The notes under the pieces were generated by a model. That model did not search any database. It was not told the DNA's origin and saw only the letters and a list, made by a program, of their open reading frames with translations. The position numbers and the translations under genes are program-made. Below, piece by piece: positions 5,390 to 50,898 of a stretch of 64,000 nucleotides of DNA (positions are counted from its first letter, which is position 1; every line of letters begins with the position of its first letter). Origin of the DNA: Giardia intestinalis (taxonomy: Eukaryota); assembly GCA_000002435.2 (NCBI GenBank), contig CM018793.1; one strand, 5' to 3'.

Positions 5390-5398
5390 GGTTGTGCA

Positions 5399-5405
5399 AG
5401 TGAAT
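5399..5405 (+). promoter_or_regulatory. Giardia-type polyadenylation signal AGTGAAT (AGTRAAY) downstream of enolase
   Basis: Lies 10 nt 3' of the TGA stop at 5387-5389. Matches the known Giardia polyA consensus. Confidence 0.6.
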
Positions 5406-5491
5406 TTTTCTGTGTCTTGACTTGCTAATGCTAGTGCCGGGAATGTGTTCGCATTCGTATGGTTCGCTGGCCTGGAGGACCCTGAAAATTA

Positions 5492-6454
5492 ATGTCGGTC
5501 GTCATCTCAGGAAAGATCACCGGCGTCTCGGCTGACTTTTGTGAGGCGTGCTCTCACACAGCTGTCCACATGTACAATGGCTTACTCTATTGCTTTGGAG
5601 GCGGAAAGAAAGGAAGTAACTATCTATTCCGTGTAAGCGAGAAGCTCTCTGTTTCATCGAGACGACCTATGCCATGTCTTCCCAGGACGCTGAATGCAAC
5701 CTGCATCACCAATAACAGATTATACTCTCTGGGAGGCTGCGAATCTATGTTGAACATTCACGATGGACTGATCAGCGGAGATGTATTGAGCATAATTAAC
5801 CTCGTGGATAACTCCTATTGTGAAGTTTTCTTGATAGGCGTTAAGATACCCGGACTAGTGGGTGCAACCCTCCTGCCCCTGGACTCAGCAAACATACTGC
5901 TTTGCGGCGGTGCCGATAGCTCCGGTCAAGCGTCGACAGTTTTCTATCTAATTAGTACCACTGAGTACCGCGTATCTATATACTGCGAGTTTCCGGCTCC
6001 TGGCATTGGTTCGTCATTCACCCTTGTGAACGGGGTCATTTATGCATTCGGAGGGCAGACGACAGGAGGCCTAGGAAACACCCTATACACCTTAACTGTT
6101 TCAAAAGCCACAGAAGAAAGACAATGGACGTCGCACAGAGTTCCTTCAAAGATTCCAAGGAGATACTGCCACTCTGCATGTGGGTACGAAGGCTATCTAG
6201 CTATCTTTGGGGGCCGGACAGAGACACGTATACTTAATGATATGTGGATCTACATCCCTCAATCTGATGAATGGCGAAAAATTGTCTGTCCTCCGTCTCT
6301 AGGTGGTCGATACTCAGCTCCCATGTGTGGCTTAAAAGAAGGGATTCTTGTGGCCGGCGGTATCGGGGCGCTCGCTATTTACGGCGCTCCCTTCATTGTA
6401 GAGCCGCTGTACTCCCTAACCAAAAGTCCAGTTAAACAAGTGGCACTCATATAA
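5492..6454 (+). CDS. Kelch-repeat (beta-propeller) protein
   Basis: Six recurring Kelch-like blades with GG doublets (LLYCFGGG, LYSLGGCES, ILLCGGADSSG, VIYAFGGQTTGG, YLAIFGGRTETRILNDMWIY, ILVAGGIG). Confidence 0.6.
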   Translation: MSVVISGKITGVSADFCEACSHTAVHMYNGLLYCFGGGKKGSNYLFRVSEKLSVSSRRPMPCLPRTLNATCITNNRLYSLGGCESMLNIHDGLISGDVLSIINLVDNSYCEVFLIGVKIPGLVGATLLPLDSANILLCGGADSSGQASTVFYLISTTEYRVSIYCEFPAPGIGSSFTLVNGVIYAFGGQTTGGLGNTLYTLTVSKATEERQWTSHRVPSKIPRRYCHSACGYEGYLAIFGGRTETRILNDMWIYIPQSDEWRKIVCPPSLGGRYSAPMCGLKEGILVAGGIGALAIYGAPFIVEPLYSLTKSPVKQVALI

Positions 6455-6476
6455 ATTTACGGTGCAAAAAGAGAGT

Positions 6477-9400
6477 ATGTCGACCAACGATAATTTGTCG
6501 TCGTCATCTTTCGCAGAGCACGAGCCTTTAGAGGGTGACTGGCTAGATAACTTCTTGGAGGAAGATGAGGCTGGCTCCCATGCTGATGACACATTACCGC
6601 TGGATTCTGACGCTGAGCGCGAGGCTTTTGAGAAGCCCCTGCTTCCTGAGCAGCGATACTATGCCGAGCGAGCCATCGATCTCCGTAATACCCTAGAGCG
6701 GCCACAAGGGAATCGCTTTCTTGGACTATTCAATGACAGCATTCTACAAGGTCGAAGCTCCTTTCTGGATGAAAATCCATCCGAGAATACGCTTGATACG
6801 ACAATAACAGATCAGGACAGAGACAAGCTCTACCATCTAGAGTACTTGCGCAGGAGTGGCCGAAGCTGGCAACCCATAGAATACACGGATGTCAAGCTAG
6901 AAAAGGTTCAGTTTACAGACGTTGAAGGTGCCATATCTGCATTTCTAATCCGCCCCAACGATCCTATGATTCGTAAGCAAATCGTAAAGGAGTTTTATAA
7001 CTTTCTATGCATGTACACAGATACCCCATCAGTGCCCGAGCTCACCGCTAAACTCCACGATCCAGAAAGCCAAGGCAAACCCATTTCAGATTCGTACCTC
7101 AGAGACCTCCAGAGTCTTGGCCAAAGCTACACCCCTCTCGATGAAGTAACCTCCATAACTGATACGTACGTTACTAGGAAGTCACAACCAGAGTCCCGCG
7201 TACCTTATTATATATCCCAACTCCTTAATTTGTTCCAGCACCGCATTGTGGACTCGTTGACCGTGAACCTTCTGCATCTCTACAAATACAAACCGGCTCT
7301 ATGTAAGCTTGTGCTTGAGCACCCGACGGAAACAATCTCAATCATCGATGAGGCCACACTATTCTTCGTGCATCGTGTAGAGTCCAACTACATACTTTCA
7401 AATAATAGGATAACTAGTCGGTTTCTCATTCCATATCTCAAGCCAAGCGATTTAGTAGCTTTAGGAATAGACTGCGCGGAGTATGATTTACTTGAGAAGT
7501 CATGGAAGAGCTTGAAGTCTGCGTGCCTTAACAAGTACGTCCGTTTAACAGGAGTTGTCACAACAAAGAGCACTAGGCTCCCTCGCCTCTCACAGGTGAC
7601 TATGCTTTGCAGGGACTGCGGGGCTGAAATGGGTCCTTTCAACCTGTCTGCCAGAGGCACCATAACCACCAAGGAAACTGTCCGGTCTGACCAGCAGGCG
7701 ATTGCGTTTCTTCCTAAGAGGTGCATAAATGAAACGTGTCGCTCGAGCAAGCTATATATTAGTACAAGTGGAACCACTTACGAAGATTTCCAGCGCATAA
7801 CAGTTCAGGAGCCTCCTAATAGTGTTGTCAGCGGTCAGCTTCCCGAGAAAAAGGAGGTTCTTTTAACTGGGGACCTCATAGATAAGGTGAAGCCGGGAGA
7901 TATGATCGTTGTTTGCGGGGTATATCGCCACATTTACGACGGGAAACTGAATAGACGGGTTGGGTTTCCTGTCTTTTCAACCCTTATTGTAGCAAACTAT
8001 GTTGCTAAAGTCTCTGACGTTTTCTTTAATTTCACGGCAGACGACAGTGCGGCAATGACCAGATTGGCAACCACCCTCAGTGGTGATGAGCTAGACAGTT
8101 TATTTCTGAAAGCCATAGCGCCGTCAATCCACGGAATGCAGGTCGTTAAGCAGGCAATTCTCATGGCCCTGGTCGGTGGGATATCCCACGCTCTAGACGG
8201 AGGAAGTGGCCAGGCTGCCTCACGATTCACAAGAGGCGATCTCCACATGCTGATACTCGGAGATCCTGGCGTGTCTAAGTCCCAGCTTCTTAAGTATGTA
8301 CAGCATATCTCACCAAAGTGCGTCTATACCAGCGGAAAGGGTTCATCGGCGGCCGGCCTCACCGTGTCGGTTAAAAAGTCAAGCGTGACAGGAGAATTCT
8401 ACTTGCAAGCTGGGGCTCTGGTTCTTGCAAACGGTGGGATTTGCATTATTGATGAGCTGGACAAGATGAACGAGATAGATAGAACAGCTCTGCACCAAGC
8501 AATGGAGCAACAGACGGTGTCCGTAGCAAAAGCAGGCATAATATCTACTTTGGAAGCTCGTGCGGGAATCATAGCCGCGGCCAACCCCGTCAGCGGCCAG
8601 TACGTCTCCAGCCTTCCAGTGACCTGCAATCTCAACATCGGTGATGCATTGATGAGCAGGTTTGACTTGATATGTGTTGTGAAAGACATGGTTAATTATG
8701 AGACAGACCTGGCCATGTCTAAGTTTATTGTTCAGCAGCATTGCAGGGCACACCCGTATGTTGGAGAGGCCATAGACTATCTGACGATGTATAGAGAGGA
8801 GATTGGTCAATTGGAGGCTCGTTTGCAGGCGCTAGAGCAACCAGAAGACAATCAAGAAAACACAGACGCCTCAAAAGCCGTTCGCGATGAGATAGACCAA
8901 TTGAGTGGACGATACAATAGGATAGTGCAGACACTAACGAACCTGTTTGGCGTAGACCACACAGAGGCAATCCTGGGCAGAGGACTTGTTGTCGACTCAG
9001 ACTATCCAGAGTTTATTGACGGGGAGCTATCCTCTAGACAAATAGTCGACCTTATTTTGGGTGCTACTGACGCCACTGGAGATCGAGCTAACATAGGGCC
9101 AAAGCATAATAATTACATCCTCCCACAAACCTTTCTAACAAGGTACATCTTTTATGCACGAATGATGCGACCCCAGTTAACCAAAGAGTGTCAGGACATC
9201 ATCTCAAAGTTTTACACTAATGTTCGACAGATGGTCACCACCGGATGCACTCCGATTACAAATCGACAGATAGGTACTTTGTTTCGTCTTGCCGAAGCTC
9301 ATGCACGCCTACATCTGCGCAAATCCGTAACCAAAGATGATGGTAACTTTGCTATTCGACTTTTTTCTGCACTATATGTGCCACAGCAGAAGGGTGCGCT

Positions 9401-9704
9401 CCAGTATGGTGTGCAGAATAAGCTTGGGACCATTTGTAACATAGAGCGAGATAAGTTTGGCGCAATCATGGCAGTGCTTGCTGACTGCATACGTTCAGCA
9501 CAAGTGTATAAGGAGACTCAAGGTGGCTCTAAGGCTGTGAGTGAGGTTCGCATCACTCCTGCATATCTAAAAGCTGAGTGCGAAATACACAATGTAGAGT
9601 TTATTAGCGGATTTCTGCAATCTCCTGTTCTTCGGCGAGGATACACCTTGGAGTATGATGCATCTGGTACGGTTACTCACATAATTAAAAAATACGCTTC
9701 ATAA
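6477..9704 (+). CDS. MCM-family replicative helicase subunit (MCM2-7 class; Walker A and zinc finger look most like MCM7) with a long N-terminal extension and a coiled-coil insertion
   Basis: Walker A GDPGVSKSQLLKY, Walker B CIIDELDKM, arginine finger SRFDL, zinc finger CRDCG…CINETC (CX2C…CX4C). ORF-track start 6462 is GTG; the first ATG is 6477. Only 22 bp separates it from the upstream gene. Confidence 0.85.
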   Translation: MSTNDNLSSSSFAEHEPLEGDWLDNFLEEDEAGSHADDTLPLDSDAEREAFEKPLLPEQRYYAERAIDLRNTLERPQGNRFLGLFNDSILQGRSSFLDENPSENTLDTTITDQDRDKLYHLEYLRRSGRSWQPIEYTDVKLEKVQFTDVEGAISAFLIRPNDPMIRKQIVKEFYNFLCMYTDTPSVPELTAKLHDPESQGKPISDSYLRDLQSLGQSYTPLDEVTSITDTYVTRKSQPESRVPYYISQLLNLFQHRIVDSLTVNLLHLYKYKPALCKLVLEHPTETISIIDEATLFFVHRVESNYILSNNRITSRFLIPYLKPSDLVALGIDCAEYDLLEKSWKSLKSACLNKYVRLTGVVTTKSTRLPRLSQVTMLCRDCGAEMGPFNLSARGTITTKETVRSDQQAIAFLPKRCINETCRSSKLYISTSGTTYEDFQRITVQEPPNSVVSGQLPEKKEVLLTGDLIDKVKPGDMIVVCGVYRHIYDGKLNRRVGFPVFSTLIVANYVAKVSDVFFNFTADDSAAMTRLATTLSGDELDSLFLKAIAPSIHGMQVVKQAILMALVGGISHALDGGSGQAASRFTRGDLHMLILGDPGVSKSQLLKYVQHISPKCVYTSGKGSSAAGLTVSVKKSSVTGEFYLQAGALVLANGGICIIDELDKMNEIDRTALHQAMEQQTVSVAKAGIISTLEARAGIIAAANPVSGQYVSSLPVTCNLNIGDALMSRFDLICVVKDMVNYETDLAMSKFIVQQHCRAHPYVGEAIDYLTMYREEIGQLEARLQALEQPEDNQENTDASKAVRDEIDQLSGRYNRIVQTLTNLFGVDHTEAILGRGLVVDSDYPEFIDGELSSRQIVDLILGATDATGDRANIGPKHNNYILPQTFLTRYIFYARMMRPQLTKECQDIISKFYTNVRQMVTTGCTPITNRQIGTLFRLAEAHARLHLRKSVTKDDGNFAIRLFSALYVPQQKGALQYGVQNKLGTICNIERDKFGAIMAVLADCIRSAQVYKETQGGSKAVSEVRITPAYLKAECEIHNVEFISGFLQSPVLRRGYTLEYDASGTVTHIIKKYAS

Positions 9705-12700: not shown

Positions 12701-12883
12701 CGCGGTACAACGGCCCTTATGCTGGCTGCCGAGCAGGGTCACTTGGACTGTGTGCGACTCTTATCTCCACATGAAAAAGACATTCATGATAACTCGGGAT
12801 ACGACGCGCTGTTTTACATGGCTCGAAGTAAGGTGTGCATTCCACCGGAGATCTTGCGCAAAATGCAGGAGTATCTGTTATGA
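9719..12883 (+). CDS. Ankyrin-repeat protein with central coiled coil (Giardia 'Protein 21.1' type)
   Basis: N- and C-terminal ankyrin repeats (…GYTALMFACENN…, …GRTALMVAASVGNSAAVETLLQ…, …GTTALMLAAEQGHLDCVRLL…) flank a coiled-coil and low-complexity middle. Confidence 0.8.
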   Translation: MQISSVDDWFTAIERGDWATVESNVEVFHGSRNMMHETGLMCAARKDFVDVVRVLMEHEAKLRDHNGYTALMFACENNAADSARLLLGLEKHIFLFDGRTALHIACESNSNACVELLARELGSVRDKHGRSSLFSAAEVGNTTAISILLLVASFSKKEIQQAKSTLKSLGIPSDELLFDEHATLDSNGCADVSGSHQCQCEQLLSAQDTHDGVVSDGGSAIEDVVETPDPVMQLKTELKRKTAVIEQLNEEVEAMRAQLHNAQQLVKQKNAEVEAQNIAGDVSNSMSLYRFLSLTPAVARINLTTELSNVLVAVPTASLPQRMVTTDVMWTSDVQHLLDTKAQELAMLYDVLTIISGLFLEVDEDLAKDLLLLCHSSRSASTTYSLYDGNVRLDGILNCLPDTEKFSGSSPSLLQPLLKGIKEKAKAIGKISSALMKKVQSILWREQELTSQVEYLEEERSNLLDKLVEARSVRCAGNFGANGELTTDEAIQVSCNDSLLDSVRTLLSDHKILLPCPQWDDLHLEQSAATLGGVASANASMAGIDQSMSGTTFLTHDPGATSFTASYTTAARQTVQKNYAAYVRSLEMNVAKTTAQLAIIHHNLQSSRWNMTDFGPLLAASERPSGVAERSRVVTSDRSTSPVAEFEHKGLMLENKRLNSIIDELKLALNNTPLEANETEEECFERQLRRLSSLPQSQLTGKGIAVGPQTIEYLRRKLLADMQPAGPAFHVPMQRPPSQAVPFIGSMAPDAARLHASYAKLAQPVDTLLDDLLSSNKPLLEVSAKAEIARKDYLHLTSGLLPNATSIEPPSVSPEDAPSHSSTLSGGVELARRSATLTPLMVAIYSKSLLDVERYLDYAGQAKLDGTTALMLAVELGFTEAVKVLRNKESRFVRDDGVTALKLAKDTGHSEIIALLSQKPNEETSDSSPKIEDMRLDLHEAARNFQIDELQRLAIPLAKTRDHKGRTALMVAASVGNSAAVETLLQLEGGLQDARGTTALMLAAEQGHLDCVRLLSPHEKDIHDNSGYDALFYMARSKVCIPPEILRKMQEYLL

Positions 12884-15800
12884 TTGGAAAAACTTATCTG
12901 CAATCTTGTTCTGGAGTTCTTCGATTTCAAGATCAATACTGTTGATATCTATTGAGGGGCGCTTGATGACTGGGGAAGGCTCATCCTTGGTCCGCATGTA
13001 ATTGATGACGGGCTTGATTGTAGCACTTATCCCAGACTGACTACTGAAGTCTCCGATTGCAAGACTACGACTGCCTTCTTGAAGGACATCCGCACCTGAC
13101 GGACGGGCTGCGCTGTATGCTAGATCCATTATTTGTTCCTGCATGCGTGTTTCCCGCTGTGCTAACTCTTCTTTTTGCATTTCTAGACTCATGATCTTTG
13201 TCCGTTGTGCAAAGTCGAGACCCTTGTAGTACTGGATATCCTCCTTTAAGCTCTGGACCTCAGCCTTGGCCTCTTCAGTTAGCCGCATTGACTCCTCGAC
13301 GGCAGCCTGGTGATCTGCTCTGTCTAGGGTAGCAGCCTGGTCCACTGCGCTGAGCTGGGCCCGTGTGGCCAACAGCTGTGCCTCTGTACGCGCTGTTTTT
13401 GCAATCATATCCGATTTAAACTGCTGTGCCTGCATGATTCCCTCACGCAAAAGTCTATTTGCCTCAAGCTGCTCTTGAATGGTGGTATCTCGCGCCTGAA
13501 TATCTGCTTGCAAACGTCTGTTTTGACCCAGCAGAGCATGGTGATCTGTCTGGAGGTTAGCATACTTTTCTGCAAGAGACTTGAGCTCCACACGCAGTAG
13601 GGCTATGTCAGTGAATTCCGCTTCTACATGTAAATGGTCTATGTTCCTTACTGCCTCTAGCTCCTGTTCGAGGGCGACTATCCGCTTGTCTCTGCTTGCG
13701 AGGGTATCCTCGTGAGCTTGCTGGGCACATAGTAAATCATTGTACTTGCCTTCTAATTGGGTTACCTTATCTCTGAGTGCGTGCTGGGCCGTAACGTTAG
13801 CGCTTAACTCCTTAGAAAGCACAGATATCTTGCCCTTAAGCTTCTGAACGTAGGCCTGGCCTAACTCATTGTCTCCGTCCGTCGCTTTGGCCAGGGTGTC
13901 ACGAGTCCGCAAGTACAGTGCTGACCTCAGTGAGCCCATTGCAAGCAGCGCCAGATCTCTGTTCCTGTTTGACTGCAACGATGTTAGAAGGATTGCGGTA
14001 GAGCTATCTGATGAGTACCTCCAGATCTTGAAGGACCGCTTCATCAACAATTGTGCGGCCAAAGCGTCTGCTCTGCTAGCATGTAATTCAATGAAAGCTT
14101 TAATAGCTGGATGCATAATGAGAAGGGGTGTCTGGCTTTTCCAGGTATGAAATGCCCGTTTTCGAAGAGTACTATCAAGCCTACTAACTAATAATTGTAC
14201 CATGATTCTAGTCTGTCTCATTCGGAGGTATCTCTGGACAAGAGCACCGAAGGCAGTCCTAGTGATTACCCTATTTTTCAATGCTACCATGGCCCTTATC
14301 TTTTCAGCGCGGCGAGTGTACCTCAGCAAAGAAACCCATGCCCTACAAATCAATCTCGTCCTAGTATTTAACTGTACAGTGCTCTCTGCATGCCTCATGC
14401 ACGAGATCCTTTCACGCCACAGGTTCAGGACCCCTCGGAAAGAGAGGATGTCTGTTCTCGGCGGACCATGTAGCTCCAACCAGCGAGCGTAGCGTTGGCT
14501 ACGTTCCGAGGCTCGCCGCTCTGACTCCGCACAGAGAGACAGAAGAGCGATTCTCTGAAGAATCTGCGTTTCATAATACTCTATTGCCTTGCTAAGGTCT
14601 CGACGAGTGACACTTTGGGATTTATGTGCATTCAGCTCAGAAACATGTGCCTTCCATGTAATGAAAATGTTTCGCAACCGTTGTTGAGGTAGAATGACAG
14701 TCTCTAGCAACACACTTTTGAAACAATCTTGTGAAAGCTTGCGAATTGTAGCAAAAGATCTAGACAATAAAAAATATCGATACTGTGCATGGGCATGGTT
14801 CTCGAGCTTCCCTAGCCTCATTTGAGCCCTGCAGTTCTGAACAAAGGTGTCCAATGCAGCACGCTTCATGATCCTAGTGAATAGAGCTGCAAAATGTTCA
14901 AGGCGCGCGGTTTGCTTCCGAGCGGTTGCGCTGTAATCGCCGCTATTTTCATTCAGATAACTTCCAGATGAAAAGGACTGCTGCTTGGAACTGGAATCAG
15001 AATACTTTGCACGAAGAAGAGACAATTCTTTTGCCTGTTCAGCAATGATAGATTGAAGCTCTTGAGGAGAAGAAAGAGAGTATCGATTAATGATATGTGC
15101 AAGACTGTGTGCAGACTGGTCACTGGATAAGTGGACATCTAGATCGCCAATAATCATGCCAGTGTTACTTAAATCGGAGACGTACCCGGGGCCCTTGTGA
15201 GCCTGGAATGAGTTATTGATTGAGCCATTGATTTGCTTATGAAGGCTTATGGAGGCAGAACGCTTCCTTCTGGATTCTGCAATTTGGTTATAGGCAGCTG
15301 TACTTGCTTGTGTAAGAGAGACAAGTGGATCTGGCCTTCCCTCTGTAGATGAGGGCCTAGCGGACCTAGCGTGCTCGTTCTGCTTATGTAGCTTATTCAG
15401 GGAAATAGGGTCTGGGCGGTGTCCCGAATGCATGCTTTGGGTGTCTGCCTCTGCCAATTCGCTGAAGGTTCGCATATTCATTTTGTTGGGGAAGAGCTCA
15501 ATAGAGTGAGGGGCACTTTCCGTCGCGTGCTTAAATATGTCCTTTTCATCCCTATCGGCCTCGTGTAGTGATCTGAGAATGGTGCTAGGTTGATCTCCAG
15601 GAAGGGTGGTCATGTCTCGGACTAAAGATGCATTTGATAGAGGGCGATCCCCTACCTGCGCAGTGTTCTCGATGTGCGACTGCACATCACTCGGCAGTTT
15701 GTTGCCTTCTATGTGCTGGGCCGCCTTGAGTTTCTCTCTGAGGGATTTGGGAGAAAACCTCTGTGCTATCTCCACTACACAGTTTGCTTGACGAGGCTTG

Positions 15801-16360
15801 CTAGTTGCATCAAAGCCGCCAACTACAAGCTTGGCGGCTTCTTCACGCTCAGCCTCGGTAACATCTTGCCCATCCAAAGATTGGAGAGAGGCACAGGCAG
15901 CTATGACCCTAATACGATAGTCACTTTGCCGCGCAATTCCATTTCCATCCAAGCGAAGCGTACGAAGATTAGGTAGAGCTGACAGGTACTCCAATTGAGA
16001 GATATCAACTATATCATTATATGCCAGTGAAAGAGACCGTAAGCGTGGAAACTGCGTAACTCCTGCAAGGTCCGATATCCTATTGTTGGAAAGAAAAAGC
16101 GTAGATATACCTCTGTATTGTGAAGGCAGGACGTCTATTTCCTCTATCCCCTTTTCAATAATGTTGATTTTCCCTGCAGAAAAACACGCAGGGTATTTTT
16201 CAATGTAGGTGCTCAGCAGTGTGAGAGGCCTGTTAGGCAGTTGCTTTTGAGGCTTAGCCCCTCTATTTTGTGCAGATCGAGTTCTCATGGCGTACTCTTG
16301 CTGGATAGCAGTCCGATAGAGTTGGTGAGCTACGTAACTCTTGCCGCCAGCAGGCTGCAT
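12878..16360 (-). CDS. Leucine-rich-repeat plus long coiled-coil protein (centrosomal/axonemal LRR-CC type)
   Basis: N-terminal LRRs (LFLSNNRISDLAGVTQFPRLRSLSLAYNDIVDISQLEYLSALPNLRTLRLDGNGI) followed by about 700 aa of heptad-rich coiled coil. ORF-track start 16378 is TTG; the first ATG is 16358-16360. Its 3' end overlaps the convergent gene by 6 bp. Confidence 0.6.
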   Translation of the reverse strand: MQPAGGKSYVAHQLYRTAIQQEYAMRTRSAQNRGAKPQKQLPNRPLTLLSTYIEKYPACFSAGKINIIEKGIEEIDVLPSQYRGISTLFLSNNRISDLAGVTQFPRLRSLSLAYNDIVDISQLEYLSALPNLRTLRLDGNGIARQSDYRIRVIAACASLQSLDGQDVTEAEREEAAKLVVGGFDATSKPRQANCVVEIAQRFSPKSLREKLKAAQHIEGNKLPSDVQSHIENTAQVGDRPLSNASLVRDMTTLPGDQPSTILRSLHEADRDEKDIFKHATESAPHSIELFPNKMNMRTFSELAEADTQSMHSGHRPDPISLNKLHKQNEHARSARPSSTEGRPDPLVSLTQASTAAYNQIAESRRKRSASISLHKQINGSINNSFQAHKGPGYVSDLSNTGMIIGDLDVHLSSDQSAHSLAHIINRYSLSSPQELQSIIAEQAKELSLLRAKYSDSSSKQQSFSSGSYLNENSGDYSATARKQTARLEHFAALFTRIMKRAALDTFVQNCRAQMRLGKLENHAHAQYRYFLLSRSFATIRKLSQDCFKSVLLETVILPQQRLRNIFITWKAHVSELNAHKSQSVTRRDLSKAIEYYETQILQRIALLSLCAESERRASERSQRYARWLELHGPPRTDILSFRGVLNLWRERISCMRHAESTVQLNTRTRLICRAWVSLLRYTRRAEKIRAMVALKNRVITRTAFGALVQRYLRMRQTRIMVQLLVSRLDSTLRKRAFHTWKSQTPLLIMHPAIKAFIELHASRADALAAQLLMKRSFKIWRYSSDSSTAILLTSLQSNRNRDLALLAMGSLRSALYLRTRDTLAKATDGDNELGQAYVQKLKGKISVLSKELSANVTAQHALRDKVTQLEGKYNDLLCAQQAHEDTLASRDKRIVALEQELEAVRNIDHLHVEAEFTDIALLRVELKSLAEKYANLQTDHHALLGQNRRLQADIQARDTTIQEQLEANRLLREGIMQAQQFKSDMIAKTARTEAQLLATRAQLSAVDQAATLDRADHQAAVEESMRLTEEAKAEVQSLKEDIQYYKGLDFAQRTKIMSLEMQKEELAQRETRMQEQIMDLAYSAARPSGADVLQEGSRSLAIGDFSSQSGISATIKPVINYMRTKDEPSPVIKRPSIDINSIDLEIEELQNKIADKFFQS

Positions 16361-16461
16361 GCTCCGGTGGGCTCCCAAATTTTAAGTTAAGTTTTAGCTC
16401 TCTCACAAGGAAAGACCCTCAGAGATATTTACAACCAAATTGCGTCGCTGTCTCGCACGAC

Positions 16462-16908
16462 CTAGAAATAAATAGCCATCATGAGGCCCTTCTGCTTCAT
16501 GCCGCACTTTTTATAGAACTCTGCCGTGTCCGGGTCAGTATCCAGAATAACCTTGTAACAGTCGTTGTTCCTTGCCCGCTCTATCAGTGAAGTAATCAAA
16601 AAGCGCCCTATTCCTTGGTTCCGAAGAGTAAGATCTACGACAACGTCCTCGATATGACCAACAGACCGCCCTGCGTGGAGCAGCTTTGGCTCGATAATAA
16701 GTGTCGCGCATGCACAAACGGTGTCAGTTTCATCCACAACAACAGTTACGTCGTGAGATGGATTTGTGCTGACACTCTTGTAGAAGCTCACGAGCTTTTC
16801 GCGCGGAACTTCTCCCACCACGGAAAGTTGCTCCAGCAGTGTAGTCAGGCGTGAAAGGTCACGTTCCTGGATAGAGCGCAAAGAGTAGCGCCCCAGGTAC
16901 TTGGCCAT
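16462..16908 (-). CDS. GNA1: Glucosamine-6-phosphate N-acetyltransferase (GNAT family; UDP-GalNAc cyst-wall precursor pathway)
   Basis: Matches GNA1 core motifs: ATLIIEPKLLHAGRSVGHIEDVVV, RNQGIGRFLITSLIE, CYKVILD, FYKKCG. ORF-track start 16920 is TTG; the first ATG is 16906-16908. Confidence 0.85.
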   Translation of the reverse strand: MAKYLGRYSLRSIQERDLSRLTTLLEQLSVVGEVPREKLVSFYKSVSTNPSHDVTVVVDETDTVCACATLIIEPKLLHAGRSVGHIEDVVVDLTLRNQGIGRFLITSLIERARNNDCYKVILDTDPDTAEFYKKCGMKQKGLMMAIYF

Positions 16909-17007
16909 CCCTCTCTGCAAAATTCTCCAAAGGCGAAGGATAAAAAATGTGCAGACATATTACCTTTTCCCGCCTCGTCTCAGCCTTTTTGTAATAAATC
17001 TCCTCAA
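16909..17007. promoter_or_regulatory. 99-bp divergent intergenic region shared by GNA1 (-) and the CBS-pyrophosphatase (+). Presumed bidirectional promoter
   Basis: AT-rich tracts GGATAAAAAATGTG and TTTGTAATAAATCTCCTCAAATG. A CTACAG (Myb2-site-like) hexamer lies at 17012-17017 just inside the + gene. Confidence 0.4.
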
Positions 17008-19095
17008 ATGTCTACAGGAGGTCTATTTTCTTCAGGCGTCTACTCTACAAACTTTGCTCCAAATCATAAAAAACACAGGTCTATGGAGGCTGCAGATCTT
17101 GTCCAGGAGCAGCCCGCCCCCATTGTGGTGATAGGGCGGAAAAACCCTAACTCCGACTCTATCCTTTCTGCGGTGGCATATGCCCATTTGCTCCAACGCC
17201 TTATGCCACATAGAACAATAACCGCCGCTGCCGCTGGCCCCATAAATGCACAAGCCTCCTACGTCTTGAAGAGGTTTAAGACAAAGAGTCCTGAAATCAT
17301 TCTCGACATCACTCCCCGTGCCCAGCATTTCAACAAGGACCAGCTAGTTGCCCTTACCGAAGATGAGCCACTGTCGCGTGCCCTGGAGCTCTACTCCATT
17401 TACAAGTTTCACGTTCTTCCGGTAATTAATAGCCAAGATCAGTGCATTGGACAGATTGCGCTGACTGACATGTTTTCTGACTTCTTGAGACCACACAGAG
17501 AGGGAGACCTCAAGAGTGTCATCACTTCCCTCAACACAGTAAAGAAGACGGTAAGGGGCCGGTTTCTCTTTTCATCGTCAATAAGCAATAAATCGAGCTC
17601 AACCCCCATGCGGCCAGGGCACGACCAGATACGACGATACAATATCATCACACCTGTAACCGTCCCGGAATATTTTGCCACCCAGACCTCCCACTTCACT
17701 CCCGAAGACTGGCAGTCTTGTATCTTCGTCGTCGGACACTATCCGGAAGTCATTGACATGATTATACGCAAAGGAGGCGGGTGTATCGTTCTCAGTCGTA
17801 GTAGCCATGTTATTGTTACTGCGAGCTCCCTGGACAGTCTTGTCAACGACAGCGACAGCAGCGACGACGAGTTTGGGGATAACGACCAGGACCCGCGAGG
17901 TTCTTTGAGCCATTCAAACTTACTGGCCACGCCATCTCTGAGCAGTTCTTTGATGACTCCAACGATAGGCGCCGTTAATACGGGAATTAGGCGGAACTCC
18001 AGTAGCTCCACCTTGTCCTCTTCACGAATCTTCACGGAGGAGCTCATCAACATGTTGAAACAAGGCAAGACGTCCGTTATCCTCACAAACATGGCCGTCT
18101 CGAGCGCAGCGATCCTTGTTAAGCAGTCCACCCCGGTCGGTCTCTACGTTAACAAGTCCAAGCACTTAATTGTGCCCGACACTATGATGCTAAGCGAAAT
18201 CAGAAAGAAGTTTGCCACGACTAAGGAGCGGGCCGTCTGTGTGGTTGACCCCTCGACAAACAAGCTCACAGGCGTTGTAACAGACATGGATCTTACAAAG
18301 AAGACACTCATCGAGGTCGTGCTTGTTGACCATAACGACATAGGCGACTCCGTTCAGGGAATAAAGTCCAGCGGGGTAGACATAATTGAAATTATAGACC
18401 ACCATAAGCTCAACAATCCCACAACACCCACTCCGATAAAGGTCACCATAGACCAGGTGGGGAGCACCTGCACCATAGTGACAAAGATGTTCCGGGACAA
18501 TGGAATTGTGCCCCCTGTGAACATCGCAGGGATCTTACTATCTGGAATAATATGCGACACCATTGGCCTCAGATCCCAGACAACAACCATATCTGATAAG
18601 AAAATGTGCGACTATTTAAGCCAGATTGTGGGAGTCAGCAGGCATGAGCTATCGCAGGAGATCTTCACAGCAAGCTCTGTCCTGATGAACTGTCAGAACA
18701 AGGAGAAACTGGTTCGTTCCGACATTCTCTCGTTCGACTTTCCAAACAAGCGCGAGAAGAAGTTTGCGATTGCAGAACTGCAGATCACCCAATACGATAT
18801 ACTCTCTCAGGGTACGCTGGCGGAGCTTCTTTCAATAGCCGAAAAGATTAAGGTGCACGACAAGTATCAGTTCGTGGCCATTCTTGCGACTAACATTGAT
18901 CCTAAGCAATCAGGATGGTCCAGCCTAATCTTCTACAGTGGCCCGGACTCCCTCATAGCTGAGCTCGGGTACACGCTGTTTAACGGAATGGATGGGATAT
19001 ACGAGTCTCGTGACATCACGAGCCGAAAGAAGCAGCTTCTCCCCCACATTCTCAGCGCGCTGAGTACTTTGGTGTTGGAGCGGGACGATTTGTAA
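17008..19095 (+). CDS. CBS-domain-containing family II (DHH/DHHA2) inorganic pyrophosphatase, bacterial CBS-PPase architecture
   Basis: N-terminal DHH motifs (IVVIGRKNPNSDSILSAVAYAHLL) are interrupted by CBS1 (HVLPVINSQDQCIGQIALTDMF), a DRTGG-like segment (FVVGHYPEVIDMIIRKGGGCIVLS) and CBS2 (VCVVDPSTNKLTGVVTDMDL). DHH motifs III/IV follow (VVLVDHND…IIEIIDHHKL), then DHHA2 (GSTCTIV…LLSGIICDTIGLRS). A Ser/Asp-rich low-complexity insert is present. Confidence 0.75.
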   Translation: MSTGGLFSSGVYSTNFAPNHKKHRSMEAADLVQEQPAPIVVIGRKNPNSDSILSAVAYAHLLQRLMPHRTITAAAAGPINAQASYVLKRFKTKSPEIILDITPRAQHFNKDQLVALTEDEPLSRALELYSIYKFHVLPVINSQDQCIGQIALTDMFSDFLRPHREGDLKSVITSLNTVKKTVRGRFLFSSSISNKSSSTPMRPGHDQIRRYNIITPVTVPEYFATQTSHFTPEDWQSCIFVVGHYPEVIDMIIRKGGGCIVLSRSSHVIVTASSLDSLVNDSDSSDDEFGDNDQDPRGSLSHSNLLATPSLSSSLMTPTIGAVNTGIRRNSSSSTLSSSRIFTEELINMLKQGKTSVILTNMAVSSAAILVKQSTPVGLYVNKSKHLIVPDTMMLSEIRKKFATTKERAVCVVDPSTNKLTGVVTDMDLTKKTLIEVVLVDHNDIGDSVQGIKSSGVDIIEIIDHHKLNNPTTPTPIKVTIDQVGSTCTIVTKMFRDNGIVPPVNIAGILLSGIICDTIGLRSQTTTISDKKMCDYLSQIVGVSRHELSQEIFTASSVLMNCQNKEKLVRSDILSFDFPNKREKKFAIAELQITQYDILSQGTLAELLSIAEKIKVHDKYQFVAILATNIDPKQSGWSSLIFYSGPDSLIAELGYTLFNGMDGIYESRDITSRKKQLLPHILSALSTLVLERDDL

Positions 19096-19566: not shown

Positions 19567-21195
19567 ATGGACCTTCATTCCGCCTCGCTGCTCGGAGGGC
19601 TCGTGGTTACATTGGCTTTTTTGCTGATCCTGTATTATAAACATTTGCGGAAGACGCGGCTGCGGCTTTCCCGGGCTTCTTTGAGTGAAAAGCTATCTGT
19701 GGCCACTGGATGGATAGGCCTGACGGGAGTACGCCCAACAATGGAAGATGGCCACGTCATCAATCTTGCATTAAGATATGAGGGAGATAACTCTGAAGAT
19801 TCCTATCCAGCGGAGAATTGCCATCAGCCCTCTGTTTGCCTCTTTGGAATTTTCGACGGGCACAGCGGGACGGCATGCAGTAATTATCTTAAGACAAATT
19901 TACAGAACCTAATATCCAAGGAGCGAGATGTGTTCTATGGGGCAAGCAGCGAGGACGTATGCGAAGCGCTCTGCAGAGCCTTCCTCGCAGCAGACTCAGC
20001 CTTTGCTGACATCTTCTTCGCAGCCAACAAAAAGCACGGGGATCGATCCTCCGTGATACTCCCCACCCCAGGCTCGACAGCATGCATCGGCCTTCTGAAC
20101 AAAGACATGCTCTATGTGGCAAACGTAGGTGACTCTCGCGCAGTGCTCGGCCGTGTTAATAACGCAGACCTCTCTGTATTCCACGTCGACTTGAGCAAGG
20201 ACCACAAACCCAACCGATCTTCGGAAACAATGAGGATACTATCTGCTGGCGGCTCCGTACAGGCATCCCACGTGTCATCTAATAAGTGCCTTGTCAGCGT
20301 TGGCCCTCTTCGCGTTTGGCCAGGTGGACTCAGTGTCTCTCGCGGTATCGGGGACTTTTCTTTGAAAGCTAACAAAGAGTTAAAAAAACAGGGAATCCGG
20401 GGAGACCTCATCTCTGCGTATCCAGAAATCAGGTATACCGTGACAAACATTTGCGATCAATTTTTAGTTATTGCCTGCGACGGCGTTTATGACGTTCTCA
20501 GTAGCAAGGAGGTGGTCGAATTTGTGTACGCTAACCGACCCACAATAATGATTGATGAGATGAAAGCGGCGATGGGGCATAATACAGGTATGGTCGTTGG
20601 CTCCCATGTCGAGGATGAGTTTTCGGATTCCCCACTAGATCAATGCAGCTCCGGCTCCAGCTCCTGTCAAACGCAGAATATCACCAAATCCAAGTATCGC
20701 AATCTTTTAAGAAAGGCACTGCACGGTATAAAGCGGCTGTTTTTCCTCGTCCACCGCTTCTGTGCCGTGCTTTACTACAAGCTACTATCCACTCCACTTA
20801 ACCCCTCAGAGGCCTCAGTGGAGCTCAACGGGGGCGAAGAACCCGCCGACAACCTTGAACTCAACGAGGACATGATCCAGCAAGTTGATTGTCTGTGCGC
20901 ACAAAAGCTGGCCGAGAAACTCGCCCACCTTGCTCTAGAGCGTGAGGCGACAGATAACATAAGCGTTATCGTGGTACTCTTCCGATGGAAGGGAATAACT
21001 CCAAACACCATAGGAGGGTGGCGTGCTTATAACCAAGTGCTCACTATGCACTCGCTCAGGGAGGACGGAGACCTACGCCCACCAATACCAGACCTCTCCG
21101 ACGAGAGCTCATGTATAGCAAGAAACCACGCCGACGACGTCACTCTGTGGATCAGCAAGGACGACCCTAGTTACCCGTTTATCCGAAGCAAGTGA
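19567..21195 (+). CDS. Protein phosphatase 2C (PPM family) with N-terminal transmembrane anchor
   Basis: PP2C motifs FGIFDGHSG, VANVGDSRAVL, LSKDHKPNRSSE, LSVSRGIGDFSLK, FLVIACDGVYDVLS. N-terminal hydrophobic helix LLGGLVVTLAFLLILYY. Confidence 0.9.
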   Translation: MDLHSASLLGGLVVTLAFLLILYYKHLRKTRLRLSRASLSEKLSVATGWIGLTGVRPTMEDGHVINLALRYEGDNSEDSYPAENCHQPSVCLFGIFDGHSGTACSNYLKTNLQNLISKERDVFYGASSEDVCEALCRAFLAADSAFADIFFAANKKHGDRSSVILPTPGSTACIGLLNKDMLYVANVGDSRAVLGRVNNADLSVFHVDLSKDHKPNRSSETMRILSAGGSVQASHVSSNKCLVSVGPLRVWPGGLSVSRGIGDFSLKANKELKKQGIRGDLISAYPEIRYTVTNICDQFLVIACDGVYDVLSSKEVVEFVYANRPTIMIDEMKAAMGHNTGMVVGSHVEDEFSDSPLDQCSSGSSSCQTQNITKSKYRNLLRKALHGIKRLFFLVHRFCAVLYYKLLSTPLNPSEASVELNGGEEPADNLELNEDMIQQVDCLCAQKLAEKLAHLALEREATDNISVIVVLFRWKGITPNTIGGWRAYNQVLTMHSLREDGDLRPPIPDLSDESSCIARNHADDVTLWISKDDPSYPFIRSK

Positions 21196-27995: not shown

Positions 27996-28087
27996 TTACT
28001 AACGACATTTCACAATGGAAAGGACATAAAATATGAAAAAGATAGGTTAGAATTTGAAGTTTGTTACTAAAGATCCGTGCTCGAGAA

Positions 28088-29791
28088 ATGCGCCACAACA
28101 GTTACGAACCAAGCAGGAAACGGAACCAGACTGGTGAACAACAAACCAGAGGTTATGGTATACAAATGGTGGCAATTGAGGAGGAAAATGAAGACTCTTC
28201 GAATAATCAAGCAAATAGCTCAGAGTACATATACACAGGTGAAGAGACGGTGCACGAAGAGACATACGACAGCAGCCTCCATGAAGATGAGGCTGACCAA
28301 GCACATGGAGCCCAATCTCCACAAAATGGAACAAGTAGCGAAAATCAATCTCCGACTAAGCCTCACACAAAGCAAAGAAATGCACCCAGAAATGTTCGAG
28401 ACAAAGCACCACCCTATGGAAATGACGCCAGTACAAATACCCAACACCGACGACCAAAAGAAGAGCACCCAACGAAAGAACGAAAACACAAAAAGGATCA
28501 ACAAGAAGATTGCCGGCAGCAGGGCCAGAATCATGCTAAGCAGAGTGCTAGACGAGATGGGGAGCAGACTGTATCAAGAGCAACCACTACAAGGGAAGCT
28601 TCCAAGGCTGGGGGGAAATATATTGAACCGATTGCAGCACCAAAAGACAGACCTACACAACAACAACAGCAACAGCAGCAGCAACAACGGAACAATAGCA
28701 AAAAAACTAATCATGAATATAGCATGCAGCTTTCCACCGGAAATGACTTTTTGACCGAATCAATTCAAAGGGAAAGAGACACACGGTTTCCACACCCCCA
28801 TAGGTACCCACGAGCCAGAGAGAGTAACTCAGAGTATGCAGCCATACTGGACGACTACGCTGAACTCTACAAGATACGGATAACGATTCCAGAGGAGCAG
28901 GTGGCCATGCTATCGAGGGAGTTGAAGACCATCAAAGGGCAGGTGGTTGACATTCAAAGTCGGCTGGACGACACGTTTGCCAGCGTTCTCAGATATATGG
29001 AAGAAGGCAAGCAAGACGTGAGGCAGTTAGTCTCTAGCATGCAAGGCATAAGCAGCAACATGAGTGCGTTTTATAAAGACGTGGACACGAGGCTGCGAGA
29101 CGCCAACGAGCAGATGTCAACTAAACAGCTATCACTGAAGGCTGGACCAGAACAACAGCACAACGATACTGCCATACTAGAGCTATTTGATGCCCACTTG
29201 AAGACAACCCTGAAATCATGCTTACCTGCCTATCTTCAATCTTGTCAGACCTATCCTCCCCTCGATGGAAAGGTAAATACCAATGAGGCAGGGGGCTATT
29301 GTGAGGCAGTCGACCCCATGGCTGTCAGTGTAAGACAACTTAGAGCGCCTCTGCCACTGACAGACACTAGCTCAGTGGAAGAGAAATACAAAATATTAGA
29401 ACAAAAATACAACCGAGCACTTGTAACAATAAAGGCTATGCGCCTTACTGCCGGCCTTGACTGTGTTCCCGTGAGCACGGAGGCTGACTATTTAGAGTTT
29501 CTTAGAGAGCTAGAAAGCAGAGCTGGGCCGATAAATAGAGAATTTTCCAAGGGAAGATACATGCTGAAAATTCGAGGGATAAATGACGATACAGACGCAT
29601 ACGTAGGTATCCTTGACGTGACATCCGACGACAATATTTTGTTACGGCACAGACAACTCCCAGACACATTATCTTCAGACACCAGCGAGCAACTGAAGAA
29701 GGACATGATTATGAGGATAAACGACATGTCCTACGTGGTGCACGAGATATATGAGTCACTCTTACCACCACCTAGCACAGACAATGAATAA
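28088..29791 (+). CDS. Hypothetical low-complexity Q/K/E-rich protein with poly-Gln tract and C-terminal coiled coil
   Basis: ORF-track start 28061 is TTG. The first ATG is 28088; an alternative ATG lies at 28166. Q10 tract at 28658-28687. An overlapping alternative-frame ORF (28077..28754) is judged spurious. Confidence 0.45.
   Translation: MRHNSYEPSRKRNQTGEQQTRGYGIQMVAIEEENEDSSNNQANSSEYIYTGEETVHEETYDSSLHEDEADQAHGAQSPQNGTSSENQSPTKPHTKQRNAPRNVRDKAPPYGNDASTNTQHRRPKEEHPTKERKHKKDQQEDCRQQGQNHAKQSARRDGEQTVSRATTTREASKAGGKYIEPIAAPKDRPTQQQQQQQQQQRNNSKKTNHEYSMQLSTGNDFLTESIQRERDTRFPHPHRYPRARESNSEYAAILDDYAELYKIRITIPEEQVAMLSRELKTIKGQVVDIQSRLDDTFASVLRYMEEGKQDVRQLVSSMQGISSNMSAFYKDVDTRLRDANEQMSTKQLSLKAGPEQQHNDTAILELFDAHLKTTLKSCLPAYLQSCQTYPPLDGKVNTNEAGGYCEAVDPMAVSVRQLRAPLPLTDTSSVEEKYKILEQKYNRALVTIKAMRLTAGLDCVPVSTEADYLEFLRELESRAGPINREFSKGRYMLKIRGINDDTDAYVGILDVTSDDNILLRHRQLPDTLSSDTSEQLKKDMIMRINDMSYVVHEIYESLLPPPSTDNE
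28658..28687 (+). repeat. CAA/CAG trinucleotide tract encoding Q10
   Basis: caacaacaacagcaacagcagcagcaacaa, read directly from the sequence. Confidence 0.9.
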
Positions 29792-29797
29792 GGCCGA

Positions 29798-31129
29798 CTA
29801 CAGACTCCATAAGTCCCCAATGGAATCAATGCCTGGAACAGATTGAAAGGCCACACCAAGCACATCATCCAGAGTCATTGTTAATTTTCCGGAACCACCG
29901 TCCTTTCCATCTACATGCCCTGGTGCACATGAGCTACTGACAATGTATCGTGCGGCAAAATTTGTGCGACTTGCAACAGCCTGGATAATCTTTAGCACCT
30001 TGCTCCCGTCCTTGGAGTTAGTCTGCGGCCCGGTTTTGACAACCTCGACTCCTGCTTGGACTCCAAAGCCACCAGGACTTTGCTCAGAGGATACCAAAGC
30101 ACTAGCCTCATCCACAGAGCCCTGTGCTTTTATCTCTACTCCATAATCTGGCTGTGCTTGCGCCTTTTGTATACTTATAAGAACGCTCTGTGCAAGGCTT
30201 TGAATAGGAACACTGGGAGTTGCCTTCTGCACATCAAATGCAAAGGTAGCTATGGAGTAAGAGCTGAGTCCTTTTCCTCTGTGTTCCTTTGCCCTAAGTG
30301 TCTTCCTGTCGAGTTCATTGCATGGAGACAGAAACTCTTTCATATTATCGTTTGCAGGAATAGAAAAGACTAGAAGCTTATCATCAGAGCCTTTTATTTC
30401 TTTGAGCGATAGACTTAAGACATCTACATAAGGAATGCTGACATTATAAGACTCGTTAGCAGGAGAAAACCAGATAATTCTATGCGACGTGCGTACAAAG
30501 ACGCCAAGCACATTACTCACTCCTATCGCAGACACTAGTCCTATGTTGCTTATGCTGCTAAGGATTACTTCTCGAGAAAGCAATATAGGTTGTCCATCTC
30601 GAACAATAGAGGAGCGCACACGAACGCGTCTATACATGCGTGTAGTGTCATGCGCTCTATACACTGCTTGTAATATGTTAAAGAAGTTTGAATTTTGTTG
30701 AGTGAATTCTCTAGAGCTCGGTTTCAGCTCAAATTTATAACCCAGCTGATTGAATGTGGCGTGAAGTACCACGGACCTGTTGCCTGTGATGAAGAGTCCA
30801 TTGTCAGGTGGAACGCTCTCTTCCAGACCTGCCACTTTTTGTTGCCTGTCTCTGTGTAGATTGCCAACAGAGATTTTTGTAATTGTGCTGAGGCCGACAC
30901 TAATACTGTGACCGTTGGGGTCTCCACGAGAGTTCCACGCCAGCCGAAGATTGGTGAGTGTGACCGTTCCAAACCTGAGAGAGTCTAGGACCGTTGGGTC
31001 TGCCCTGACATCCTCAACGCCGTCAAAGCGCACGATTGCGTATTCTCCAGGGACTAGCACTAAGGCATCTGCTGGTGCATCAATGAGCAGCAGTTTGTCC
31101 GGCCTATTGTGAGAGAAGATCTCCTTCAT
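29798..31129 (-). CDS. BBS5: Bardet-Biedl syndrome 5 protein (BBSome subunit) orthologue with about 100-aa C-terminal extension
   Basis: BBS5 blocks: RFGTVTLTNLRLAWNS (cf. GRLLVTNLRILWHS), QAVYRAHDTTRMYRRVRVRSSIV (cf. [23 protein letters not shown]), GVFVRTSHRIIWFSPANESYNVSIPYVDV (cf. [29 protein letters not shown]). Confidence 0.8.
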   Translation of the reverse strand: MKEIFSHNRPDKLLLIDAPADALVLVPGEYAIVRFDGVEDVRADPTVLDSLRFGTVTLTNLRLAWNSRGDPNGHSISVGLSTITKISVGNLHRDRQQKVAGLEESVPPDNGLFITGNRSVVLHATFNQLGYKFELKPSSREFTQQNSNFFNILQAVYRAHDTTRMYRRVRVRSSIVRDGQPILLSREVILSSISNIGLVSAIGVSNVLGVFVRTSHRIIWFSPANESYNVSIPYVDVLSLSLKEIKGSDDKLLVFSIPANDNMKEFLSPCNELDRKTLRAKEHRGKGLSSYSIATFAFDVQKATPSVPIQSLAQSVLISIQKAQAQPDYGVEIKAQGSVDEASALVSSEQSPGGFGVQAGVEVVKTGPQTNSKDGSKVLKIIQAVASRTNFAARYIVSSSCAPGHVDGKDGGSGKLTMTLDDVLGVAFQSVPGIDSIGDLWSL

Positions 31130-50872: not shown

Positions 50873-50879
50873 GTTTACT
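50873..50879 (-). promoter_or_regulatory. Polyadenylation signal AGTAAAC downstream of the VSP gene
   Basis: The reverse complement of GTTTACT lies 20 nt after the VSP TAG stop. Confidence 0.6.
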
Positions 50880-50898
50880 ACCTAAGTCACAGCTAAAT

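Follow-up and report, generated by a model that had tools for sequence, protein, structure and literature searches.

The CBS-domain pyrophosphatase GL50803_8163 of Giardia intestinalis: replaced M1 ligands and a probably altered function

The subject of this paper is GL50803_8163, a gene of Giardia intestinalis for a family II inorganic pyrophosphatase (PPase) of the CBS-domain type. We studied it in a stretch of 64,000 nucleotides (assembly GCA_000002435.2, contig CM018793.1, one strand), hereafter the window, in which an intact open reading frame (ORF) of 695 codons runs from 17008 to 19095 on the plus strand. Its product is 100% identical to the G. intestinalis protein XP_001709328, annotated as 'manganese-dependent inorganic pyrophosphatase', and the gene was recognized as GL50803_8163 by its slot between GL50803_14651 and GL50803_14650 in a genome-ordered expression table. 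Judged by its residues, the protein is unlikely to act as an ordinary pyrophosphatase any more, because two ligands of one metal site (M1) and a substrate-binding lysine, which almost all relatives keep, have been replaced.

The presence of a CBS-PPase in Giardia, with its bacterial-type architecture, is already known. Passages of a 2024 review (PMC11210485) state that CBS-domain family II PPases were once thought to be prokaryotic, name several protists including Giardia as carriers (citing Baykov et al. 2017), mention further protists and algae with such enzymes, and present a model of XP_001709328.2 in which 'two loops' are pointed out. An earlier note on this DNA had made the architecture its headline, which the existing annotation and this literature already cover. 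What seems undescribed, as far as we have read, is the remodelled M1 site: a text search of family II PPase papers for His9 and Asp13, with Baykov et al. 2017 lying outside the search, gave no match. Likewise, we found no published enzyme assay of GL50803_8163 in the literature.

The active site and its protein fold

Residues are numbered here as in Bacillus subtilis PpaC (1k23), by way of an alignment. In the structure of the T. commune enzyme (9M0M, described in a preprint), M1 is held by His10, Asp14, and Asp84, M2 by His106, Asp16, Asp84, and Asp158, and the substrate by His107, Lys215, Arg305, and Lys306. The B. subtilis equivalents are His9, Asp13, and Asp75 for M1, His97, Asp15, Asp75, and Asp149 for M2, and His98, Lys205, Arg295, and Lys296 for the substrate. 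G. intestinalis and its relative G. muris each have two paralogues of the enzyme, namely group A, to which GL50803_8163 belongs, and group B, represented by XP_001709297.1 (691 amino acids, ~37% identical to GL50803_8163), whose gene lies on the same chromosome outside the window.

In GL50803_8163, His9 is replaced by Arg44 (codon CGG, 17137-17139), Asp13 by Asn48 (AAC, 17149-17151), and Lys205, in the DHHA2 domain, by Leu574 (codon 18727-18729), so that two of the three protein ligands of M1 and one of the four substrate binders are lost. Motif II is altered as well, with Glu78 changed to Asp444 and Gln81 to Asp447 beside the kept Asp441 (= Asp75), and Gln590 has become a glutamate throughout the orthogroup. 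The M2 site is whole (Asp50 = Asp15, Asp441 = Asp75, His465 = His97, and Asp517 of motif IV = Asp149), and His466 (= His98) and the stretch S672-R-K-K-Q676 (Arg673 = Arg295, Lys674 = Lys296) are kept in G. intestinalis too. The earlier note had overlooked these replacements of catalytic residues.

How unusual these replacements are can be seen from 146 canonical sequences, in which His9 and Asp13 are conserved in 100% and Lys205 in 99%. At these three positions, none of the seven group A sequences has the canonical residue, and six changes are common to the whole group: H9R, D13N, E78D, Q81D/E (the last two from motif II, DHNExxQ), K205L/I/T, and Q590E. In a systematic scan, 43 columns reached a conservation of at least 90% among 138 prokaryote-type references; 41-42 of them are kept by group B paralogues, 37 by GL50803_8163, and 31 by its G. 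muris orthologue. The latter additionally carries D203N and reads SKNNQ in place of SRKKQ, thus losing Arg295, Lys296, and Lys297. Since four of the six shared changes fall in motifs I and II, the source of the M1 ligands, and are fixed across the genus, the pattern looks like remodelling, not drift. Among 159 sequences, the only other arginine at the His9 position occurs in P0204 (432 amino acids), which also has Asp149 changed to Asn and ends before DHHA2.

The fold around this altered site is that of a family II PPase. The Pfam DHH profile is matched over residues 39-514 (E 2.8e-15) and DHHA2 over 551-683 (E 1.4e-06), both above the gathering score, and two CBS stretches (residues 111-156 and about 387-430; E 1.2e-10) lie inside the DHH span, which is hence interrupted. 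NCBIfam models of CBS-PPases (the PRK14869 group) match at up to 2e-90, although below the curated equivalog cut-offs for a (putative) Mn-dependent diphosphatase (303.6 bits vs 483 for NF011445, 294.2 vs 335 for NF011443, and 193 vs 283 for PRK05427). A phmmer search against the Protein Data Bank (PDB) retrieved family II PPases as the only solved relatives (E 2e-31 to 5e-24) and no PPX1 or Prune sequence at E<=0.001. With Foldseek, the AlphaFold2 model (mean predicted local distance difference test, pLDDT, 81) matched family II PPases at 2e-21, yeast PPX1 (2qb6) at 2e-12 with a template modelling (TM) score of only 0.31, and NrnA/GdpP at 1e-10 or weaker. The earlier assignment to the bacterial-type CBS-PPases, and not to Prune/PPX1, is thus borne out by sequence (~1e-31), by fold, and by the presence of the CBS insert.

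The domain scan that had been suggested confirmed the interrupted DHH domain, the two CBS stretches, and DHHA2, whereas DRTGG escaped Pfam and was picked up with hhalign and Foldseek only. Pfam DRTGG (PF07085) gave no match even at E<=10, neither with the whole protein nor with two excised middle fragments; it is found in every bacterial match and in none of the Giardia-clade matches P0001-P0008. Yet when profiles of the Giardia middle region and of the DRTGG region from bacteria are compared, they align along all 130 columns (hhalign, 98.4% probability, E 8.5e-15), and the model superposes on the CBS-DRTGG-CBS regulatory region of Clostridium perfringens (3l2b/3l31) with a TM score of 0.80, normalised to the 233-residue target, with the caveat that bacterial sequences were part of the model's input alignment. 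By these two comparisons, a DRTGG-like domain is present, though diverged from GDR to GHY and from TGG to SRS. The second CBS domain carries a motif of the G-h-h-T-x-x-D type (GVVTDMD, by eye in the alignment).

The Ser/Asp-rich insert of the protein is real and predicted to be disordered; it interrupts the DRTGG-like domain itself, whereas it had been supposed to separate DRTGG from CBS2. Nor is it an elaboration that Giardia added after a transfer, since an insert occurs at the same position in all diplomonad copies (21-231 amino acids; 7 in Barthelona and in bacteria). It is the fastest-evolving segment of the protein, with a proportion of nonsynonymous differences (pN) of 0.17-0.22.

Paralogues, selection, and possible roles

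An exhaustive search returned 2638 relatives. Closest to GL50803_8163 are its orthologues in other Giardia assemblies and in G. muris, the group B paralogue, and homologues in Spironucleus salmonicida, Hexamita inflata, and Barthelona sp. A neighbour-joining tree was built from 133 sequences and 542 columns (unrooted, 200 bootstraps, most neighbours unnamed), leaving out the other protist and algal CBS-PPases reported in the literature. Sixteen diplomonad-type sequences form one clade in 197 of 200 replicates (179 with Barthelona included), and orthogroup A is recovered in all 200. Support within the clade is low, at 50-63 of 200 for groups A and B together, 20 for group A with the Hexamita and Spironucleus copies described below, and 81 for group A with P0115/P0117. 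From these sequences, group A arose before G. intestinalis and G. muris split, and both paralogues predate that event.

Several members of this clade have gone further than group A. P0118 and P0125 of H. inflata and P0122 of S. salmonicida, which form a 200/200 clade, have lost most metal ligands (P0118 reads PNDGCDVNQ at nine ligand and motif positions) and are apparently dead enzymes kept in Hexamitinae. The existence of such putatively degenerate paralogues shows that non-catalytic copies are tolerated and kept in diplomonads.

Divergent copies also turned up in a sample of diplomonad-like source. A contig of Logan SRR31929897 (L087) bears two CBS-PPase genes in tandem, at 4381-6957 (P0117, 858 amino acids) and 7182-9422 (P0115, 746 amino acids), both with Asp149 changed to Asn and P0115 also without Lys205 and SRKKQ; the same sample carries a canonical copy (P0006, on L006). 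The deep-branching metamonad Barthelona sp. PCE has a CBS-PPase that is annotated as a hypothetical protein only (P0123, KAL0229683.1). The diplomonad insert is absent from it, its DRTGG motif is still of the GD type, and an insertion of its own, ~33 residues long, precedes CBS2.

GL50803_8163 is expressed and, as the comparison of assemblages indicates, under strong purifying selection. The ratio of nonsynonymous to synonymous substitution rates (dN/dS) is ~0.03 overall between assemblages, and 0.007 for CBS domain 2 against L001. These ratios are rough because the proportion of synonymous differences (pS) is saturated at ~0.7-0.9, so that pN and pS are the safer measures: the DHH core has a pN of 0.004-0.03 vs a pS of ~0.7, its C-terminal part being the most conserved of the whole protein between assemblages. 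Every assemblage, and G. muris as well, has an unbroken reading frame. In published RNA-seq data, the transcript stands at a log2 of counts per million (CPM) of ~7.7 in trophozoites, climbs gradually to 8.3-8.7 late in encystation (three series), and returns to 7.7-7.8 after excystation. Proteomics has one peptide on record, from a mitosome-enriched fraction.

The two paralogues have diverged unevenly. When G. intestinalis is compared with G. muris, the identity of DHHA2 comes to 35.5% in group A vs 56.6% in group B (Fisher p = 4.7e-4), whereas the first DRTGG-like part is 56.8% identical in group A vs 33.3% in group B (p = 0.004). CBS1 and the DHH parts of group A are at least as conserved as those of group B, and group A is more distant than group B from every outgroup. 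These identities suggest that the substrate-binding lid (DHHA2) is relaxed in group A, with the regulatory module and the DHH core tightly held.

We lean towards the reading that GL50803_8163 is a remodelled regulatory paralogue, weakly active or inactive. With two M1 ligands and Lys205 replaced, the enzyme would be impaired both in activating the nucleophilic bridging water through two metals and in gripping inorganic pyrophosphate (PPi) in the canonical way. At best this would leave a slow PPase with altered metal use; more probably, the protein would be a weakly catalytic or non-catalytic nucleotide-binding partner or sensor. The guanidinium group of Arg44 may occupy the position of the M1 cation, given that the charge balance would be kept: exchanging a divalent metal, a neutral histidine, and an aspartate for a positive arginine and a neutral asparagine leaves the net charge unchanged. 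Bacterial CBS-PPases are tetramers whose dimers are inactive, and they have AMP and ADP as inhibitors and ATP and Ap4A as activators (PMC11172384); by analogy, co-assembly with the canonical paralogue, for instance in mixed tetramers, is conceivable. According to the literature, the glycolysis of Giardia uses PPi-dependent enzymes (PPi-PFK and PPDK), and either role would fit an organism that spends PPi in this way and could not afford its unrestrained hydrolysis.

A wider proposal, which we put forward tentatively, takes in the whole group. Beside a canonical CBS-PPase, diplomonads would keep paralogues that are partly (group A) or almost fully (Spironucleus, Hexamita) dismantled, with the CBS/DRTGG module preserved. 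Group A, with an arginine supposedly at M1, would then act as a pseudo-enzyme or regulatory subunit; by binding adenine nucleotides it would adjust the canonical enzyme, for example in mixed tetramers, or it would buffer PPi, and in this way protect the glycolytic PPi pool.

Several points weigh against a loss of ordinary activity. The catalytic loss is deduced from sequence, and eight of the 11 canonical catalytic residues are kept in G. intestinalis (the whole of M2, DHH, and SRKKQ). The DHH core, more conserved than any other part of the protein, argues that some active-site event persists. Asparagine can ligate metal, so that M1 may be weakened rather than abolished, and the position of Arg44 is conjectural. 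A hetero-oligomer with the paralogue is pure conjecture, and the substitutions may already stand in Baykov et al. 2017.

Much of this would also suit a fully competent, adenine-nucleotide-regulated, Mn/Co-dependent PPase, as annotated, that tolerates the substitutions, for example with M1 still held by Asn48 and Asp441 or with a third metal that compensates. The kept His98, the strong similarity to family II PPases and to the PRK14869 models, the very strong purifying selection on the DHH core, and expression of the gene speak for it. We nevertheless hold this to be rather unlikely: His9 and Asp13 are invariant and Lys205 nearly so among the canonical sequences, the NCBIfam equivalog cut-offs are missed, and DHHA2 is relaxed relative to the paralogue. 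An orthologue devoid of Lys205, Arg295, Lys296, and Lys297, as in G. muris, is hard to square with PPi binding, and ordinary activity could be supplied by the canonical paralogue.

More improbable still is a DHH phosphoesterase that has been neofunctionalised for another substrate (a nucleotide, polyphosphate, or other phosphoanhydride) by way of the retained M2, a reshaped M1 side, and a reshaped DHHA2 lid. The clustering of the changes in the M1-ligand motifs and DHHA2, together with their fixation across the genus, would suit such an enzyme, and the DHH superfamily does include nucleases and phosphodiesterases of the same fold. There is, however, no positive sign of any alternative substrate, and the low identity of DHHA2 between the two Giardia species resembles relaxation more than a new fixed specificity. 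A decaying pseudogene, to which the several replaced catalytic residues might point, is ruled out by the selection and expression data (the intact frame, a dN/dS of ~0.03, steady expression at a log2 CPM of ~8, and the detected peptide).

Origin, coding span, and surroundings of the gene

All nameable nearest relatives outside the metamonads are prokaryotic, and the metamonad sequences fall among prokaryote-type CBS-PPases as one clade. The nearest named prokaryotes belong to Opitutae/Verrucomicrobiota, Desulfuromonadales, Spirochaetota, and Planctomycetota. Because they are scattered over several phyla at 28-36% identity, no single donor lineage emerges from the unrooted neighbour-joining tree, and the Firmicutes affinity once suggested finds no echo among these top matches. 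Within metamonads (Giardia, Spironucleus, Hexamita, Barthelona), the family is vertically inherited. A bacterial origin is plausible; if so, the transfer predates the diplomonads and was followed by duplication, and it was not specific to Giardia, since homologues occur in G. muris, Spironucleus, Hexamita, and Barthelona and form one clade.

Of the lateral transfer proposed in the earlier note, the prokaryotic outside relatives stand, whereas a recent or Giardia-specific event does not. The gene has a G+C content of 0.486-0.491, like the rest of the window and its neighbours, hence no compositional anomaly, and the order of leucine-rich repeat (LRR) protein, GNAT, and PPase is kept in four G. 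intestinalis-type assemblies and G. muris. A recent transfer from a bacterium, or bacterial contamination, is ruled out by this synteny and the tree, for all its otherwise prokaryote-typical architecture, and the identity to any bacterium, stated above, also speaks against it.

The coding sequence most likely starts at Met26 (17083), giving a protein of 670 amino acids, and not at 17008 as the ORF had led the earlier note to assume. Three other Giardia assemblies lack the ATG at 17008 (L001 has ATA there), whereas Met26 is kept in L001-L003 and G. muris, whose protein begins at this very position. RefSeq has likewise moved from a first model of 695 amino acids to the present one of 670 (XP_001709328.2), and residues 1-28 are predicted to be disordered (pLDDT <50). 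Table 1 gives the coordinates on this basis.

Table 1. Features of GL50803_8163 and its upstream neighbour, with positions in the window and residues counted from the first codon of the 695-codon ORF
Feature	Position	Strand	Evidence
Coding sequence, conserved start to stop	17083..19095	+	ORF; 100% identity to Giardia protein; start kept in L001-L003 and G. muris
25-codon 5' extension, probably promoter or 5' leader and not coding	17008..17082	+	ATG is ATA or absent in other assemblages; motifs kept
DHH domain, N-terminal part, residues 39-100; motif I GRKNPNSD at 17134-17157	17122..17307	+	Pfam DHH 39-514
CBS domain 1, residues 111-156	17338..17475	+	Pfam CBS, E 1.2e-10
DRTGG-like domain, first part, residues 173-263	17524..17796	+	hhalign 98.4%; Foldseek 3l2b/3l31, TM 0.80; alignment
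Ser/Asp-rich insert, predicted disordered, residues 264-343, inside the DRTGG-like domain	17797..18036	+	pLDDT <50 at 276-338
DRTGG-like domain, second part, residues 344-382	18037..18153	+	hhalign alignment resumes; helix-strand-helix in model
CBS domain 2, residues 383-434 (Pfam about 387-430)	18154..18309	+	Pfam CBS, second stretch
DHH domain, C-terminal part, residues 435-545; motif II DHNDIGD; motif III DHH 464-466	18310..18642	+	Pfam; alignment
DHHA2 domain, residues 551-683; SRKKQ at 19021-19035	18658..19056	+	Pfam DHHA2
Divergent intergenic region common to the GNAT gene and the PPase gene	16909..17082	.	Assembly comparison; published GlMyb2 ChIP-seq match assigned to GL50803_14651
Head-to-head neighbour GL50803_14651, 148-residue GNAT; context, not part of the enzyme	16462..16908	-	Pfam Acetyltransf_1; annotated as glucosamine 6-phosphate N-acetyltransferase

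The head-to-head pairing with this acetyltransferase gene (GNA1), which had been singled out as a link to encystation, is a real arrangement, conserved in L001-L005; the encystation part does not hold for GL50803_14651, which is neither induced in encystation nor Myb2-dependent. In the published RNA-seq data its expression is low and without early induction, at a log2 CPM of 5.3-6.2 during encystation in all three series, with 6.9 reached only in the cyst sample of one series; the early-induced acetyltransferase of that paper is GL50803_14259. A published match in GlMyb2 chromatin immunoprecipitation sequencing (ChIP-seq) is assigned to GL50803_14651 (2.7-fold), whereas quantitative PCR (qPCR) did not bear this gene out as a target of Myb2. 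As a lead only, the ChIP signal might serve the divergent PPase gene, which is mildly up in encystation.

The shared intergenic region has one CTACAG, at 17012-17017, which fits the Myb2 motif CWACAG known from the literature. It points in the direction of the PPase gene, 71-87 bp upstream of Met26, and is kept in four assemblies. The leader (17008-17082) holds this element, CTACTCTACAAA, and the A-rich CATAAAAAA just 5' of Met26, all of which three further Giardia assemblies share. With 72 occurrences vs 75 expected, CWACAG shows no enrichment in the window, so the putative site has its conservation and the published ChIP match as its support. The motif comparison was limited to the assemblies other than G. 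muris because in that species the gap between the GNAT and PPase starts appears to be only 14 bp. The G. muris GNAT ORF (L005:3408-4000) is ~44 residues longer at its N-terminus, lacks a methionine where the G. intestinalis protein starts, and holds three CTGTWG sites inside this extension.

Farther out, the PPase gene is neighboured by genes for a PP2C phosphatase and Rpb5. In the phosphatase (19567-21195, plus strand; 542 residues), the catalytic domain falls within residues 52-325 and is followed by a long C-terminal region without a Pfam match. Upstream of the GNAT gene, a 1166-codon ORF (12878-16378, minus strand) encodes a large LRR-plus-coiled-coil protein, whose gene adjoins GNAT and PPase in the other assemblies and G. 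muris as well. Elsewhere in the window, composition deviates at 28-30 kb (28001-30000), with an AT skew of 0.31, and within 48001-54000, where G+C reaches 0.56 at 48-50 kb and 52-54 kb vs ~0.48 elsewhere.

Comparison with known systems

Reviews treat GL50803_8163 as a representative eukaryotic CBS-PPase and as a possible drug target, and one of them modelled it (PMC11210485). Should it prove inactive or regulatory, Giardia's actual PPase would be the other paralogue, and both the choice of target and metabolic models should change. With a glycolysis run on PPi, the restraint of PPi hydrolysis becomes a physiological question, to which a nucleotide-sensing pseudo-PPase would be a testable answer. 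If true, this would also be a new case of pseudoenzyme evolution in the DHH superfamily, possibly with arginine in the place of a metal.

The bacterial CBS-PPases, such as cpPPase of C. perfringens (3L2B/3L31) and dhPPase of Desulfitobacterium hafniense, have the same order of parts, that is, a CBS-DRTGG-CBS insert of ~250 residues in DHH followed by DHHA2. They share the M2 site, the DHH motif, SRKKQ, and the regulatory fold (TM 0.80) with GL50803_8163. Compared with them, the Giardia protein has replaced two of the three M1 ligands as well as Lys205, Glu78, Gln81, and Gln590, its DRTGG-like domain is beyond Pfam detection and split by the 80-residue disordered loop, and identity is down to 28-36%. 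Canonical family II PPases (B. subtilis PpaC 1K23, Streptococcus 1I74/2ENX, T. commune 9M0M) are the best solved matches in both sequence and fold, with the DHH and DHHA2 domains and the motifs of GL50803_8163; they differ in being dimeric, having no regulatory insert, and possessing all catalytic residues.

The nearest comparison is with the group B paralogue XP_001709297.1, which has the same architecture and a disordered insert at the same position, in G. muris too. Group B keeps His9, Asp13, Glu78, Gln81, Lys205, and Gln590, whereas group A replaces all six, and in group B DHHA2 is better conserved and the DRTGG-like part less so. The degenerate paralogues of S. salmonicida (EST47522.1) and H. 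inflata (CAL6074311.1 and CAL5984823.1) fall in the same clade, share the architecture with a short insert, and, like group A, have lost canonical catalytic residues; in Spironucleus an apparently canonical copy exists beside them. Whereas GL50803_8163 lost only the M1 side and Lys205, the degenerate copies are without most metal ligands, Asp75, His97, and Asp149 among them, which makes them clearly dead as PPases, as far as their residues tell. Their orthology to group A is unsupported by the tree (20/200).

A precedent for such a fate is Cdc45, a eukaryotic, non-catalytic member of the DHH family (RecJ-like), in which the fold was kept for structural or regulatory ends after the catalytic residues had been lost. 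In subfamily and in function, however, Cdc45 is unrelated to GL50803_8163, and the comparison implies no homology closer than the superfamily.

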